This document shows, in pieces, positions 31,266 through 49,348 of a stretch of 64,000 nucleotides of DNA. Numbering within the stretch: the stretch's first letter is position 1; every line of letters starts with the position of its first letter. The notes beneath the pieces are model-generated. The model did not search any database. It was not told the origin of the DNA and worked only from the letters and a program-made list of their open reading frames with translations. The DNA is from Bacteroidaceae bacterium. GTDB taxonomy: Bacteria; Bacteroidota; Bacteroidia; Bacteroidales; Bacteroidaceae. The stretch covers positions 95,941-159,940 of the forward strand of contig JAGBTN010000018.1 in NCBI GenBank assembly GCA_017631315.1. The letters are read 5' to 3'. Position numbers and translations under genes: made by a program.

Positions 31266-31275
31266 ATTGCTTTTT

Positions 31276-31349
31276 CATTGACCATTGACCATTGACCATT
31301 GACCATTGACCATTGACCATTGACCATTGACCATTGACCATTGACCATT
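31276..31349. repeat. perfect tandem heptamer array (CATTGAC)x10 plus a partial unit
   Basis: Ten identical units span 31276-31345, followed by CATT. The array lies between the tRNA-Pro 5' end and its only visible promoter box. Confidence 0.95.
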
Positions 31350-31435
31350 CTTGGTTTAGCACCAAGTCGCGCTTTTAATGCGCGGAGGACCATTGTCTAT
31401 GGAGACTTAAGGCCCAATGTCTTGCGAAAAGCGGT

Positions 31436-31443
31436 GCAAAGGT
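31436..31443 (-). promoter_or_regulatory. -7 promoter box (TACCTTTG on minus strand), candidate tRNA-Pro promoter
   Basis: Plus strand CAAAGGTA, about 170 nt upstream of the tRNA 5' end. I saw no closer TAnnTTTG. Confidence 0.45.
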
Positions 31444-34087: not shown

Positions 34088-34486
34088 ATGACAGAGGCCG
34101 AGTTGAAGGATAGGCTGATGAACTTTGCAATCAGAATCATTAAAATGGTTGATTCTATGCCTCATTCTATATCTTCTGCGGCTATTGCCAAACAAGTTGT
34201 ACGTTCAGGCACTTCGCCGATTGCCAACTATCGGGCTGCATGTCTTGGAAAGTCTAAAAGAGATTTCTTGAATAAGTTAAAGATGGTAGAGGAGGAACTG
34301 GATGAAACAGGGATGTGGCTCGACATCATCATGGAAACAGAAATGCTCCCACGTAAACGCGTCAGCGCATTATATGCCGAAAGTCAAGAACTCCTGAAAA
34401 TAATTATCAGTTCAATACTCACCGTACAGACTTCATTAAAATCGGAAGGCAAAGAAACTCCATCTACCCAATCTTCAAACAGATAA
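34088..34486 (+). CDS. four-helix-bundle protein, 23S rRNA intervening-sequence protein / Avd-like family (PF05635)
   Basis: 132 aa. QVVRSGTSPIANYRAA, DFLNKLKMVEEELDETGMWLDII are family hallmarks. It is only distantly related to the copy at 32726. Confidence 0.85.
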   Translation: MTEAELKDRLMNFAIRIIKMVDSMPHSISSAAIAKQVVRSGTSPIANYRAACLGKSKRDFLNKLKMVEEELDETGMWLDIIMETEMLPRKRVSALYAESQELLKIIISSILTVQTSLKSEGKETPSTQSSNR

Positions 34487-34561: not shown

Positions 34562-35845
34562 ATGGCAAAAATAAAGCCTTTTAAGGGTGTTCGTCCACCG
34601 AAGGATCTTGTCGAGCAAGTAGAGAGCCGTCCTTATGATGTCCTTGACTCTGAGGAGGCTCGTTCTGAGGCTGGCGACAATGAGAAGTCGCTCTATCACA
34701 TCATCAAGCCCGAGATTGACTTCCCTGTCGGCACAAGCGAGTACGACCCTCGTGTCTATGAAAAAGCCGTCGAGAACTTCAAGATGTTCCAGGAGAAGGG
34801 CTGGCTCAAACAGGATGCAGAGGAGATGTATTACATCTATGCGCAGACAATAGGAGAATCCCCCCTTGGGGGACTGCGGGGGGCTTCCGGCAAGACGCAA
34901 TATGGTCTTGTTGTGGCTGCTGCTGTAGAGGACTACATGAACGGCGTTATCAAGAAGCATGAACTAACACGTCGTGATAAAGAAGAGGACCGCATGAAGC
35001 ATGTTCGTGTGAACAATGCCAACCTCGAACCCGTATTCTTCGCTTATCCTGATAATGCCGTGCTCGATGCACTTGTTGCCCGAATAACATCAACGGTTCC
35101 GGAATATGATTTCATTGCTCCCGTCGATGGTTTCCGTCATCAGTTGTGGCTGGTCAAGGAGCCAGAAGACATCAGCACAATCACCGAGACTTTTGCCTCT
35201 ATACCTTATTTATATATAGCAGACGGACATCATCGCAGCGCAGCAGCAGCACTTGTTGGAGCAGAAAAGGCAAAGCAGAACCCCAATCATCGTGGCGACG
35301 AGGAATACAACTTCTTTATGGCGGTTTGTTTCCCCGCAAGCCAACTCACGATTTTAGACTATAATCGTGTCGTTAAGGACCTCAACGGCATGACCGACGA
35401 GCAGTTCCTTGATGCACTTTCCAAAAACTTTGAAGTCACGAAGAAAGGTTTAGAGCCTTATCGACCTGCTGAGTTGCATGAATTCAGTCTGTATCTTGGA
35501 GGAGTATGGTATAGCCTCAAACTCAAAGAAGGTCTTTGCGACGAGAACGATCCCATTGGCAGCCTCGACGTAAGCATCAGCAGTAAACTCATCTTGGACG
35601 AGTTGCTCGGCATCAAAGACTTGCGTAGTGACAAGCGCATCGACTTTGTAGGTGGACTTCGTGGCTTGGGTGAGTTGAAGCGTCGTGTGGATAATGGCGA
35701 GATGAAGATGGCCTTGGCGCTTTATCCTGTCAGCATGACGCAAATCATGAATATTGCAGACAGTGGCAACATCATGCCTCCTAAAGCAACATGGTTCGAA
35801 CCGAAACTCCGTTCGGGTCTTGTGATTCATAAATTGGATGATTGA
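34562..35845 (+). CDS. DUF1015 domain-containing protein
   Basis: 427 aa. MAKIKPFKGVRP...YDVLDSEEAR, IKKHELTRRDKEEDR and YIADGHHRSAAA are DUF1015 signatures. It carries a GC-rich in-frame insert at 34856-34888. Confidence 0.85.
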   Translation: MAKIKPFKGVRPPKDLVEQVESRPYDVLDSEEARSEAGDNEKSLYHIIKPEIDFPVGTSEYDPRVYEKAVENFKMFQEKGWLKQDAEEMYYIYAQTIGESPLGGLRGASGKTQYGLVVAAAVEDYMNGVIKKHELTRRDKEEDRMKHVRVNNANLEPVFFAYPDNAVLDALVARITSTVPEYDFIAPVDGFRHQLWLVKEPEDISTITETFASIPYLYIADGHHRSAAAALVGAEKAKQNPNHRGDEEYNFFMAVCFPASQLTILDYNRVVKDLNGMTDEQFLDALSKNFEVTKKGLEPYRPAELHEFSLYLGGVWYSLKLKEGLCDENDPIGSLDVSISSKLILDELLGIKDLRSDKRIDFVGGLRGLGELKRRVDNGEMKMALALYPVSMTQIMNIADSGNIMPPKATWFEPKLRSGLVIHKLDD

Positions 35846-46256: not shown

Positions 46257-47684
46257 GTGAAGCGACTTCCTCCTCTTTGGCTCTCATGTGTGCCACTGGC
46301 ATTGCTGGTGGCACTCATTGCTTGTGTAGTCAGCATCTTTGGAGATGAGACGTTGGCTGGTGCTTCGCAACTGGCATTGCTGGTTGCAACAGCATCCTGC
46401 GTAAGCATAGGTATTGTAACGAACCTTATTTCATGGAATGATTTCGAACGAGCAGTAAGCGATAAGGTCGGAGGAGTCAGTTCTGCGATTATTATCTTAC
46501 TGCTTATTGGCGCACTTGGCGGAGCATGGATGGTGAGTGGGGTAGTGCCTACTATTATATATTATGGTATGGAGATAATGAGCCCGAAGTGGTTCCTTGT
46601 TTCTGCTTGCCTCATCTGTTCGCTTGTCAGTGTGCTGACTGGTTCCTCTTGGACAACGATTGCAACCATTGGCGTTGCATTGATGGGAATCGGTAAGGCA
46701 TTAGGTTTTTCGGAAGCTTGGATTGCAGGAGCCGTCATCAGCGGCGCTTATTTCGGTGATAAAATGTCGCCAATGAGCGATACAACTGTTCTTGCTTCCA
46801 GCACTGTCGGCACACCTTTGTTTACGCATATCCGTTATATGCTGTATACTACGGTGCCGACATATTTCATAACATTGACAATCTTTACTGTCGTAGGGCT
46901 TGGACAAGGCGAGATGGTTACTTCTCATGTTGCAACAGTTCAGCATGGTTTGCAGCAAATATTCATTATCTCTCCTTGGCTTATTCTCGTTCCAGTGTTG
47001 ACATTTGTGCTTATCCTGATGCGTTTGCCCTCAATGGTTGTGCTTTTCCTTGCGACGCTTTTAGGTGTTGTGGCTGCAGTCTGGTGCCAGACGCACTTGC
47101 TTGACCAGGTGGCAGGAATAACCCATGAAGGCATTGCCCAGCGTATCCGTGGTGCTTTTATCATTGTTTATGGTAGCACCGACCTTGATACAGGTATACC
47201 AGAACTCAACGACCTTGTTGCCACAAAGGGAATGGCGGGGATGTTAAATACCATTTGGATTATTCTTTGTGCGATGGCTTTTGGGGCTGCGATGACGGCA
47301 ACCAGAATGCTCGAAAGCATTATGCAGGCACTGCTTCGACTGGTTCGAGGGACGGTATCCCTTGTTGCGAGCACTGCCTTTTCGGGTATGTTTCTCAATA
47401 TTGTCAGTGCAGACCAATACTTGAGCATCATCTTGACAGCAACAATGTTTGGCGACACTTACAAGAAGAACGGATATGAGTCGTGTTTGCTCAGTCGTAC
47501 TTGCGAGGATAGTGCAACGGTTACGTCTGTGCTTATTCCTTGGAATACTTGCGGTATGACGCAGGCGAGTGTGCTTGGCGTCAGCACATTGGTTTATGCG
47601 CCTTACTGCTTTTTCTGTTACTTAAGTCCCATAGTAACCATTTTAGTAGCGGCATTTTTGCCAAAGAAGAACTTTTCCGAATGA
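46257..47684 (+). CDS. nhaC: Na+/H+ antiporter NhaC family protein
   Basis: I propose a GTG start at 46257 (VKRLPPLWLS...), 1 nt after the POT stop. The ORF-track ATG at 46203 would overlap POT by 53 nt. The protein is polytopic and NhaC-like throughout. Confidence 0.75.
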   Translation: MKRLPPLWLSCVPLALLVALIACVVSIFGDETLAGASQLALLVATASCVSIGIVTNLISWNDFERAVSDKVGGVSSAIIILLLIGALGGAWMVSGVVPTIIYYGMEIMSPKWFLVSACLICSLVSVLTGSSWTTIATIGVALMGIGKALGFSEAWIAGAVISGAYFGDKMSPMSDTTVLASSTVGTPLFTHIRYMLYTTVPTYFITLTIFTVVGLGQGEMVTSHVATVQHGLQQIFIISPWLILVPVLTFVLILMRLPSMVVLFLATLLGVVAAVWCQTHLLDQVAGITHEGIAQRIRGAFIIVYGSTDLDTGIPELNDLVATKGMAGMLNTIWIILCAMAFGAAMTATRMLESIMQALLRLVRGTVSLVASTAFSGMFLNIVSADQYLSIILTATMFGDTYKKNGYESCLLSRTCEDSATVTSVLIPWNTCGMTQASVLGVSTLVYAPYCFFCYLSPIVTILVAAFLPKKNFSE

Positions 47685-49348
47685 TGAAACGTAGTTTGTG
47701 TGTCATTGCGACATTCATTGCTTTGTGCTTTGCGCAAGCAGCAGAGTTGAGTTTGAAAGTTAGGTGCAGGTATTTGAACTTGCCAGTGTCGCATGAGGTT
47801 GAACGTTCTCGGCTTACATTTAGGGCAAAGGGCGTGGACGACCTTAATGTGGTTGCCCGTCTTTCTGCCAATCCGGAGTATTGGGTGTTCAAGGACATCT
47901 CTGCCTATAGGGGCAAGACTCTGACCATTACCTTTGACGGACCGGAGGATGCGCTCATGCAGGTTTATCAGTCAGATTCTATTCGTGATGCGGCTTCGAT
48001 ATATCGCGAAAGGAATCGTCCTCAGTTTCATTTCACAACTCGACGTGGCTGGATAAACGACCCCAATGGCTGTATATGGCACGATGGGCAGTATCATCTT
48101 TATTATCAGCATAACCCTTTCGAGCGCGAATGGGAGAATATGACATGGGGCCATGCCACAAGTCCGGATCTTTTGCACTGGACGGAGCAACCTCCGGTGC
48201 TGTTCCCCGACACTCTCGGCACGATGTTTAGTGGCTCGGCCGTTTTCGATAAGGACAATACTTCTGGCTTCGGAACGAAGAAGAATCCGCCTCTTGTCTA
48301 TGCTTATACTGCCGACCGAAGTGAGAAGGAGGTGCAATGCATTGCTTATAGCCTCGATGGCGGTATGACACTGCATAAGTACAAGGGTAATCCGGTTATT
48401 GATTCGCACGACAAATGGCAGACTCGTGACACGAGAGATCCGCGTGTTTTCTGGTATGAACCAGGAGGTCATTGGGTTCTCGTCCTGAACGAACGGAACG
48501 GACACAGCATCTATACGTCTGCCAACCTGAAGGAATGGACATATCAAAGCCATGTTAATGGTTTCTGGGAATGTCCCGACTTGTTCCCTTTGCCCGTTGA
48601 CGGCAATGCGGATGATGTTCGGTGGGTGATGTATGGTGCAAGCAATACGTATATGATAGGCCGTTTCGACGGGAAGGTCTTTACGCCAGAGAGTGGAAAA
48701 CACCGTTTCTCTACAGGTGCCATATATGCTGCTCAGACATTCAATGATGTGCCGGACGGGCGAAGAATACAGATTGGGTGGGCGAACATCGATCATCGTG
48801 GAATGCCTTTCCGAGGGCAGATGTTGCTGCCGACGGAGTTGACTTTGCGTTCCACGAAAGATGGTGTCCGTCTCGTAAGCAAGCCTATCAAGGAGGTTGA
48901 AACGCTTTTGAGCCCGCTCTATAACAGCGAAAGTGGCCTGAAGAAGCAGGAGGCCAATGTCGCTCTGAACAAGGCACTCCCCCAAAGGGGGAGCGGGGAG
49001 GGGGCTAACTGCTTGCATCTCCGCGCTACACTGAACCTCACATATGCCACAAGTGCAGGGCTGAAGTTCGATGGGCAGACGCTTGTCGACTACGACCTCA
49101 ACAGGAATACGTTGAATGGTCAGTTCTATTCTCCTCAGGACCCTACAAGCCTTTCGCTCACAATGGATATTTATATCGACCGCACCTCAATAGAGGTTTT
49201 CATCGACGATGGTTTGTACAGTTATTCCATGGAGCGCAGGAGGGCAATAGGAGCAGCCCAGAAGACAATACCCAAAGGCTTTGAATTCTGGGGCTCGGAC
49301 ATTAGTGTTAGCGACATCCGGCTCGATGCCGTCGAGAGTTGCTGGTAG
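47681..49348 (+). CDS. glycoside hydrolase family 32 (beta-fructosidase / levanase-like), secreted
   Basis: I take the start at MMKRSLCVIATFIALCFAQA, which overlaps the nhaC stop (ATGA). GH32 motifs are WINDPNG, the RDP region (TRDTRDPRVFW) and ECPDLF. It carries a GC-rich in-frame element at 48978-49006. Confidence 0.85.
   Translation: MMKRSLCVIATFIALCFAQAAELSLKVRCRYLNLPVSHEVERSRLTFRAKGVDDLNVVARLSANPEYWVFKDISAYRGKTLTITFDGPEDALMQVYQSDSIRDAASIYRERNRPQFHFTTRRGWINDPNGCIWHDGQYHLYYQHNPFEREWENMTWGHATSPDLLHWTEQPPVLFPDTLGTMFSGSAVFDKDNTSGFGTKKNPPLVYAYTADRSEKEVQCIAYSLDGGMTLHKYKGNPVIDSHDKWQTRDTRDPRVFWYEPGGHWVLVLNERNGHSIYTSANLKEWTYQSHVNGFWECPDLFPLPVDGNADDVRWVMYGASNTYMIGRFDGKVFTPESGKHRFSTGAIYAAQTFNDVPDGRRIQIGWANIDHRGMPFRGQMLLPTELTLRSTKDGVRLVSKPIKEVETLLSPLYNSESGLKKQEANVALNKALPQRGSGEGANCLHLRATLNLTYATSAGLKFDGQTLVDYDLNRNTLNGQFYSPQDPTSLSLTMDIYIDRTSIEVFIDDGLYSYSMERRRAIGAAQKTIPKGFEFWGSDISVSDIRLDAVESCW

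Follow-up and report, generated by a model that had tools for sequence, protein, structure and literature searches.

An in-frame insert in a DUF1015 gene

The subject of this analysis is a short GC-rich hairpin repeat that lies in frame inside a gene for a DUF1015 family protein, on a 64,000-nucleotide stretch of DNA from a Bacteroidaceae bacterium (contig JAGBTN010000018.1; "the window" below is this whole stretch, and positions are counted from its first letter). The window belongs to a genome assembly of 2.68 Mb that is ~87% complete (G000 below). Its lineage, first guessed to be Prevotella when the sequence alone was read (the sequence-only reading), is not a named Prevotella but an uncultured rumen and gut Prevotellaceae lineage (Bacteroidaceae in the Genome Taxonomy Database, GTDB), all of whose genomes are metagenome-assembled genomes (MAGs). 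The sequence-only reading had placed a GC-rich palindrome at 34856-34888, in frame in the DUF1015 gene, and the sequence, the open reading frame (ORF) and the Pfam match all agree with it. The features at this locus are as follows.

34562..35845, + strand: host gene, DUF1015 family protein, 427 aa (Pfam PF06245, E 2e-111)
34852..34887, + strand: insert AGGAGAATCCCCCCTTGGGGGACTGCGGGGGGCTTC, translated I-GESPLGGLRGAS, residues 97-109 of the DUF1015 protein
34856-34888, + strand: the 33-mer as first quoted, GAATCCCCCCTTGGGGGACTGCGGGGGGCTTCC, encoding ESPLGGLRGAS within the DUF1015 ORF
34859..34873, + strand: hairpin core TCCCCCC-TT-GGGGGA, a 6-bp C/G stem with a 2-nt loop, read from the sequence
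Protein stretch across the insert junctions: AQTIGESPLGGLR

The expectation that DUF1015 homologues do not have these residues was borne out: in >20 genomes of this genus, and in other, distant families of the order Bacteroidales, the orthologues read YIYAQTM-NG-KTQYG, without the 11 residues, so that the insert is a true indel. Its exact bounds had to be moved. Alignment of the window allele (CAGACAAT-AGGAGAATCCCCCCTTGGGGGACTGCGGGGGGCTTC-CGGCAAG) with an empty allele 94% identical in DNA (CAGACAATGAA, then TGGTAAA), and also with 10 orthologues, showed 36 nt at 34852-34887 in place of GAA, i.e., a net gain over the empty allele of 33 nt or 11 codons. The same filled allele is present in independent ENA, JGI and Logan assemblies and is thus not an assembly artefact. 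It is common to a clade of proteins 84-100% identical to the window protein, with variants such as IGDSPMGGLKGAA, and the near-identical proteins P0020, P0023, P0025 and P0030 retain the ancestral QTMNGKT with no insert; the insert is therefore real and polymorphic among close lineages, and its age has sufficed for divergence. Diverged alleles show decay of the G-rich tail and of part of the stem, with the peptide core SP(L/M)GGL persisting. In RNA form, pairing of GAA.CCCCCC with GGGGGG.UUC is also possible within the whole 33-mer, whose fold (-17.1 kcal/mol) is no better than that of composition-matched shuffles (z -1.1).

The position of the insert in the protein was followed by modelling. 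A search by sequence gave no solved homologue of DUF1015. AlphaFold2 with an alignment of 31 close sequences gave an unusable model (predicted local distance difference test, pLDDT, 51), and the 75 sequences available after a metagenome scan gave a usable one (m2793b3f55358; mean pLDDT 81, predicted template modelling score, pTM, 0.80). In this model the strands 89-96 and 112-121 are joined by a coil (97-111) with pLDDT <50 at 101-106. Because a low-confidence coil lies between two confident strands, the insert is, in the model, a floppy extension at the tip or turn of a beta-hairpin, in line with the surface loop that had been expected. Two orthologues (L018 and L022) have another short insert at the same turn. 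The insert is presumably carried through into the mature DUF1015 protein.

A family of GC hairpin repeats

A related element had also been recognised in a GH32 gene of the window, and it turned out to be a perfect-consensus copy.

47681..49348, + strand: GH32 glycoside hydrolase, host of the second copy (start uncertain; open frame from 47540)
48974..49006, + strand: second window copy GCACTCCCCCAAAGGGGGAGCGGGGAGGGGGCT, perfect consensus, translated ALPQRGSGEGA (nhmmer E 1.7e-6)

This insert, at about residues 432-442, lies between the two Pfam domains of its host (Glyco_hydro_32N, 117-402, and Glyco_hydro_32C, 454-514). GH32 orthologues in four genomes (G007, G011, G042 and G016) have a different, length-variable loop at its position, and the filled copy is also found in the orthologue of another MAG (L093). 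The pattern C5-N2-4-G5 occurs in the 64-kb window at the places of these two copies only, where shuffles expect 0.02. The motif first described is indeed common to both copies; the family unit is longer, with the consensus GCA-CTCCCCC-N2-3-GGGGGAG-CGGGGAGGGGGCT, and comprises a 7-bp C/G stem, a 2-3-nt loop and a G-rich tail ending in GGGGGCT. At 33 nt the unit is exactly 11 codons long, contains zero stop codons in all six frames and encodes Pro/Gly/Ser-rich peptides. With six open frames and this length, insertion never breaks the reading frame, and it is tolerated wherever a floppy 11-residue loop is bearable.

Genome-wide searches (including nhmmer) found about 17-20 copies in G000, coding and intergenic and in several frames, so that neither finding which would have told against the sequence-only reading (the same residues in distant orthologues, or no further copies) was made. 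The copies are singles or inverted, tail-out pairs of ~95-110 nt, i.e., the 33-nt unit is one arm of the ~100-nt inverted pairs, in which the arms measure 32-50 nt. The inverted pairs form very stable hairpins (-68 to -89 kcal/mol, z -6 to -11), and a single unit has a fold no better than that of shuffles. G000 also contains a sister family (…CTCCCCCTAAAGGGGGTTGGGGGGTC); the internal core CAGCGGCAATG has too few copies in this genome to be informative. Intergenic copies of a TCCT subtype (G000:C7:7867-7950 and G000:C16:38807-38838) lie within runs of GTTAAGG/GTTAGC/GTTAGGG hexamers, and on C7 two modules of this subtype stand in tandem.

Among 121 genomes of the genus, the hairpin core was found in 88, at 0-117 copies per genome, with a reversed-pattern control at ~0; elsewhere in the order it was found in 26 of 250 genomes only, mostly at 1-3 copies. 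The exact subfamily was recovered from >118 contig stretches, all of them in MAGs of rumen or gut origin with the label Bacteroidaceae, Prevotellaceae or Alloprevotella sp., and no exact copy was found among 2.9 million viral contigs. The element-bearing loci of G000 matched no Rfam family for the element, only sub-threshold hairpin noise, and 121 copies gave no consensus GTAG or CGTC tetranucleotide, the 5′ side reading rGCA-CTCCCCC. A CRISPR-like array was considered and ruled out, as there is no regular spacing.

Taken by itself, the DUF1015 insert gives a weak nhmmer match to the family profile (E 0.03), so that its membership rests on shared architecture and length; it is an old, fixed, partly decayed, in-frame solo arm of this GC hairpin repeat family.

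Copies inside genes

The copies are not depleted from coding DNA. In G000 and the sampled loci together, 71 of 114 arms (62%) are intragenic, vs 67% of 3000 random sites (p 0.32), i.e., copies are as frequent in genes as between genes. The independent sample consisted of 80 element-selected loci (640 kb), in which 56 of 92 units are spanned by a frame that stays open for at least 60 codons on both sides; clustering of the hosts left 49 independent sites. The in-frame hosts in G000 are of seven kinds, namely DUF1015, GH32, an RmlD reductase, methionine synthase (MetH), a PolyA_pol/HD protein and two large outer-membrane proteins. The sampled hosts are genuine proteins by Pfam (RF3, asparaginase, RelA/SpoT, GH43, OEP, a Gate-family membrane protein and again MetH), and the inserts lie between their Pfam domains or in loops, with interdomain linkers as the sites in MetH, asparaginase, GH43 and OEP. 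Copies are read in several frames and in both orientations, and others are intergenic. The terminal GCT/AGC forms a whole codon (giving LPQRGSGEGA or SPLPAPPLGE) in 41 of 62 site-by-phase combinations (p 1.3e-7). The indel, the repeat family and its occupancy of coding DNA are direct observations, and so are, as described below, the association of arms and DUF559 gene with its recurrence in other lineages, the nesting of whole units in frame, and a site at which four states of the element are found.

Three of the G000 hosts carry pairs, one of 99 nt in RmlD, one in MetH and, in PolyA_pol/HD, a pair of the sister family. These sites, which were compared with relatives (L047-L050, L184-L194), have variable inserts.

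G000:C18:126839-126934: variable-insert site in RmlD
G000:C1:16061-16159: variable-insert site in MetH
G000:C13:32845-32921: variable-insert site in PolyA_pol/HD

Sibling species have different in-frame repeat types at one codon position in each of these genes, be it GC pairs with other spacers, other GC palindromes, inverted (GAAGAAT)n arms or (GTTCAAT)n microsatellites, and more distant species have a 12-nt native loop there. For RmlD, the alignment with the crystal structure 1VL0 covers 13-153 and 155-287 on the two sides of the 33-residue pair, so that the pair falls in a tight turn. All three loops behave as landing pads or indel hot spots.

Several further observations concern these loops and their repeats. 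Heptamer microsatellites are read in frame as TTDNGQQTTDN…SMVNGQWSMVN in MetH (G000:C1, ~aa 120-160) and as a heptamer-encoded DNGQQTTDNGQ in an outer-membrane protein ORF (G000:C20), and the RmlD and MetH loops of G007, G011 and G016 are filled with the CATTGAC heptamer that is also found at 31266-31443 of the window. In two RmlD orthologues (G017:C22:105299-105459 and G020:C26:120451-120611) the protein match is interrupted by a further gap of ~160 nt (query residue ~239-241), suggestive of one more in-frame insert at a second site.

A DUF559 gene between the arms

G000 contains no gene for a REP-associated tyrosine transposase (RAYT, PF01797; REP, repetitive extragenic palindrome), nor one of the IS110 or TnpB type, and ORF clustering over the 640 kb of element-selected loci showed no transposase family enriched near the copies. 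The same clustering revealed an ORF of ~130 aa that adjoins the element in 7 loci (8 by tblastn mapping). It sits inside an inverted pair of arms, the whole unit measuring ~500-560 nt, and belongs to DUF559 (PF04480, 104 bits vs a curated cut-off of 20.6). The motif E.DG.YH…D..R…RF.N is conserved at 90% or more in 38 diverged homologues, and the closest solved structure is PDB 3HRL (E 1.6e-14). The encoded protein is a predicted Vsr-like PD-(D/E)XK nuclease. DUF559 has been placed in the Vsr clade of these nucleases, to which a homing endonuclease of a group I intron also belongs (PMC3424549; PMC9403480), and one DUF559 protein of Caulobacter acts as an active nuclease in vivo (PMC12907096).

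DUF559 genes are present in 77 of the 121 genus genomes, at 1-7 per genome and with 37-92% identity. Thirty DUF559 loci have inverted C4-7-N2-5-G4-7 arms on both sides, 10-80 nt away. The inverted repeat flanking the gene has a median length of 19 nt, vs 7 nt in 300 random windows (control maximum 14), and in 25 of the 30 loci it exceeds the 99th percentile of the control. The arm sequence varies with the DUF559 subfamily, and the subfamily 74-92% identical to the query has exactly the arm of the window family. A subterminal segment, CAGCGGCTTTGrGGCA, is common to full units and gene-less copies, which fits a derivation of the pairs by internal deletion. Element and gene occur together in 67 of the 121 genomes, the element only in 21, the gene only in 10 and neither in 23 (odds ratio 7.3, p 5e-6), and the number of copies is correlated with the gene (Spearman 0.54), in statistics that ignore phylogeny and relatedness; the gene is present in 28 of the 30 genomes with at least 20 copies. 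What is new here is that the same arms bracket a DUF559 gene, that each gene subfamily has its arm variant, and that copy number goes with the presence of the gene.

A RAYT-like Y1 transposase (80 bits) was seen in one high-copy genome (L278 = G128:C69:11497-14844), with inverted repeats of its own that form a GCACCC-N4-6-GGGTGC hairpin; the genus thus has a classical REP/RAYT system alongside the DUF559-linked repeats. Two genomes (G007:C49:24225-24578 and G042:C11:9296-9649) have, ~700 nt downstream of the RmlD gene with the variable in-frame insert, a divergent DUF559 gene of 37% identity to the query, and none is there in G000. In the window, a small ORF of PF05635 (the 23S rRNA intervening-sequence, or IVS, protein family) lies directly upstream of the DUF1015 gene, at 34088-34486; it is also found on the contig with the empty DUF1015 allele (L195:1027-1425), where a second PF05635 gene lies across serA (L195:1-24). 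Inverted repeats on both sides of a small gene (PF05635, DUF559) may be a general theme of this lineage.

Units at other sites and in other genes

The only close-subfamily unit found at a different locus is that of G057, and this site was compared across 120 genomes. Most of them have an intergenic region of 50-125 nt here. In G060 and G096 a tail-only remnant lies in the N-terminus of the downstream gene; in G056 a complete solo arm lies in frame in the same N-terminus, with the ancestral intergenic region retained; and in G057 a left arm and the DUF559 gene are additionally found, in place of the intergenic region. Most simply, the solo arm would be the older, with the gene and the second arm arriving beside it later, i.e., a homing-like gain at a cognate arm.

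Outside the genus, DUF559 genes are flanked by hairpin variants of each lineage's own in three genomes (G246, G149 and G197) from unrelated families of the order with separate hairpin expansions, and the arm-DUF559-arm unit is often nested in frame in large genes. The hosts in the order include IleRS (in two families, at one and the same site), a ValRS-type synthetase and a capsule-type epimerase, and in one further case the unit is fused to the C-terminus of IspG. In a sample of the phylum, 74 of 150 high-quality genomes have DUF559, which is nested in frame in 14 of the best 30 loci. Pfam confirmed MetH (L339), LeuRS and acetyl-CoA synthetase (Acs) as hosts in this sample; two further genomes have the same MetH flanking motifs, which brings the MetH host to three genomes in total, and other nested hosts resemble subunits of type I restriction-modification (R-M) systems by their flanking motifs alone.

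Five nested copies (L318, L315, L316, L307 and L301) lack a start codon of their own where they join the host. Pfam at E<=1e-5 detected no intein or Hint domain in the nested hosts, which showed host domains and DUF559 only, and 12-20 residues (about 35-50 nt) flank the DUF559 domain on each side. An insert of 480 nt would be open by chance with a probability of ~5e-4 per frame. Without a start codon or a Hint domain, and with a frame so improbably open, the nested units appear to be translated as part of their host proteins. An intron or an intein was considered for these cases and ruled out, as there are no such domains and the frames stay open. Several single hosts contain peptides encoded by solo arms in addition to the nested DUF559 (L330, L328 and L332, all type I R-M HsdR-like; L316, ValRS-like; and L307), with repeated PSTTGRGAGGEGNT blocks in the HsdR-like proteins and two extra inserts each in the ValRS-like protein and the epimerase.

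Interpretation and alternative explanations

The best reading of these data is a system that resembles both the REP/RAYT pairs and the Rickettsia palindromic elements (RPEs) and is built on a DUF559 nuclease, the role of the nuclease being a presumption. The solo arms and the gene-less pairs would be internal-deletion derivatives and/or targets of the ~0.5-kb DUF559 units; the nuclease would recognise its cognate arms and might drive their copying by break-and-repair, with an architecture like that of REP/REPIN-RAYT systems (REPINs being inverted REP doublets) and a spread like homing. The direction of events between units, pairs and solo arms is one that we infer. Taken whole, i.e., as an in-frame dispersed hairpin repeat whose arms are the ends of DUF559 units and which DUF559 mobilises, this reading is judged probable. 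Its parts differ in strength: the in-frame dispersed repeat is practically certain and the link of the arms to DUF559 units very likely, and the suggestion of DUF559 as the candidate mobilising enzyme, made from sequence, is a tentative one that falls somewhat short of probable.

A number of points weigh against this reading. The gene is missing from 21 of 88 element-bearing genomes and present in 10 of 33 element-free ones, and the statistics of the association take no account of relatedness. At the level of hidden Markov model (HMM) searches there is no DUF559 in G000 (an assembly ~87% complete), despite its 17-20 copies, perfect-consensus ones included, so that the copies in G000, with that in DUF1015, are probably inert passengers. 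Among 12 close-subfamily DUF559 genes, 11 share one orthologous locus, from which it follows that the gene is mostly inherited vertically and rarely moves, while the arms disperse. The DUF1015 copy is the most diverged member of the family, no consistent target-site duplication or defined insertion signature was found at the ends of the pairs, and the codon-phase bias (41/62) is not accounted for by the model. The unrelated repeats at the same codon of three genes are explained only loosely, as occupants of a landing pad, and the translation of the inserts rests on frame conservation.

The main rival is that the repeats are ordinary elements of the REP type, or MITEs (miniature inverted-repeat transposable elements), moved by some other transposase, with DUF559 settling in the hairpins or being stabilised by them, so that the association would be secondary. 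G000 and 20 other element-bearing genomes without DUF559, a gene that is mostly at a fixed locus, and a solo arm at the G057 site that seems older than the arrival of the gene all speak for it, and insertion sequences that target REPs are known, ISPpu9 being the example given in one report (PMC8450116). It is nevertheless unlikely: G000 has no RAYT, IS110-type or TnpB-type gene; the one clear RAYT, in the high-copy genome G128, has another palindrome at its flanks; the 640 kb of element-selected loci are not enriched in any transposase family; target-site duplications were not seen; and a passive landing pad leaves the inverted, subfamily-specific arms on both sides of DUF559 unaccounted for.

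A function for the host at the level of nucleic acid (a terminator, an mRNA-stabilising hairpin or a supercoiling site, as for REPs), with the intragenic copies as tolerated spill-over, would suit the intergenic copies, among them a pair (C13:44481-44587) that immediately follows a stop codon and stands between an A-run and T. T-rich sequence follows about half of the copies, and the P0038 allele of DUF1015 has kept a 7-bp stem through a paired change. Such a function is very unlikely, however, when 62% of the copies are intragenic, often in the middle of an essential gene where termination would be harmful, when single units fold no better than shuffles, and when the diverged DUF1015 alleles lose the tail and part of the stem and keep the peptide core.

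That the arms are recombination sites for programmed inversion, rather than the ends of mobile units, with the dispersed copies as by-products, is favoured by a survey in which "DUF559 domain-containing protein" is 14-fold enriched among predicted targets of programmed inversion (PMC9881135); inverted repeats around DUF559 genes are thus common and had been noticed before, and read differently. The idea is highly improbable here, since the orientation of the gene relative to both neighbours is constant in all 10-11 orthologous loci examined, nested units need one orientation for the host frame to stay open, hundreds of gene-less singles and pairs lie at unrelated sites, and no invertase was seen beside the units in the 80 element-selected loci. 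A local origin by replication slippage or template switching, or a selected peptide module in place of a dispersed mobile repeat, could draw on the loops as indel hot spots with microsatellites and partial tail duplications and on the strong preference for one codon phase, but is effectively refuted by the genome-wide copies, i.e., identical 30-mers at >118 unrelated loci in many genomes, in several frames, in both orientations and also between genes, conserved at the level of DNA and not of peptide.

If the preferred reading of a DUF559-linked, in-frame repeat is extended to the nested units, the elements might, with more doubt, form an undescribed class of selfish elements in Bacteroidota: DUF559 units with stop-free hairpin arms, a multiple of three in length, that, together with their gene-less derivatives, live in coding DNA without splicing, spread by nuclease-triggered copying at cognate arms, and appear in essential enzymes (IleRS, ValRS, LeuRS, MetH and Acs) as translated loops or as an additional nuclease domain. 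If true, this would add to introns and inteins a third way in which mobile DNA can reside in genes without inactivating them. Short palindromic repeats of bacteria have been treated as extragenic by definition, with in-frame ones seen as a peculiarity of Rickettsia; the present family is equally common inside genes and outside them, in a major rumen and gut lineage, and its candidate enzyme has a fold not known for driving the spread of repeats, which gives the widespread DUF559 a testable role. The family could account for odd Pro/Gly-rich loops and extra nuclease domains in annotated housekeeping proteins of Bacteroidota, which is of relevance to the annotation of MAGs and to protein-family alignments, and its copies are a natural guide to the places at which conserved enzymes tolerate insertions.

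Comparison with known systems

No description of such a DUF559-linked in-frame repeat system was found in the open-access papers searched, and the nearest systems each share a part of it. REPs are short palindromes with a GTAG or CGTC tetranucleotide at one end (PMC3733652), and RAYT genes are mostly inherited vertically while their repeats disperse (bioRxiv 10.1101/119735; 10.1101/2021.07.10.451892). The likeness to REP/REPIN-RAYT systems lies in the short imperfect palindromes (20-40 nt) that occur as singlets and inverted doublets, here as 33-nt singles and tail-out pairs, and in a low-copy, mostly vertical gene flanked by its own inverted cognate repeats, with a different repeat family for each gene subfamily. 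The present system differs in that its gene codes for a Vsr-like nuclease of the DUF559 family in place of an HUH Y1 transposase (PF01797), in that its repeats have no GTAG/CGTC tag and are 62% intragenic and in frame where REPs are extragenic, and in that whole gene-carrying units are nested in frame in host genes.

The likeness to the RPEs, to which the sequence-only reading had already pointed, is a fair functional analogy. RPEs, reportedly described by Ogata et al. in 2000 and 2002, are said to lie in frame in protein genes, to be translated and tolerated at the protein surface, and to occur in non-coding DNA as well. They are ~100-150 bp long, AT-rich and confined to Rickettsia, and are not known to have an associated enzyme. 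Both are in-frame palindromic repeats at structurally tolerant positions (here the DUF1015 tip, the RmlD turn and the interdomain linkers). The present repeat, at 33 nt, GC-rich, from Bacteroidota and linked to a nuclease gene, is set apart by length, GC content and phylum, and homology is not expected.

Homing endonucleases and inteins (including the EDxHD family and I-Bth0305I) share with the nested units a Vsr-clade nuclease in conserved housekeeping genes, here those of aminoacyl-tRNA synthetases and MetH, and the use of the same site in distant lineages (PMC3424549; PMC9403480). Unlike inteins, the nested hosts have no Hint or splicing domain by Pfam, and unlike intron-borne homing endonucleases, the units have flanks too short for a group I intron core. 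The unit is instead open in the frame of its host, which implies retention in the protein, and the arms also spread without the gene. MITEs, finally, are likewise short elements bounded by terminal inverted repeats (here 32-50 nt), and the pairs look like internal-deletion derivatives of the gene-carrying unit. They are unlike the present family in that no target-site duplication is seen here and in that the parent-like unit encodes DUF559 and no known transposase. A census puts bacterial MITEs at about 90% intergenic (PMC11602168), vs 38% of the copies here, and in this respect the hairpin family differs from them sharply.

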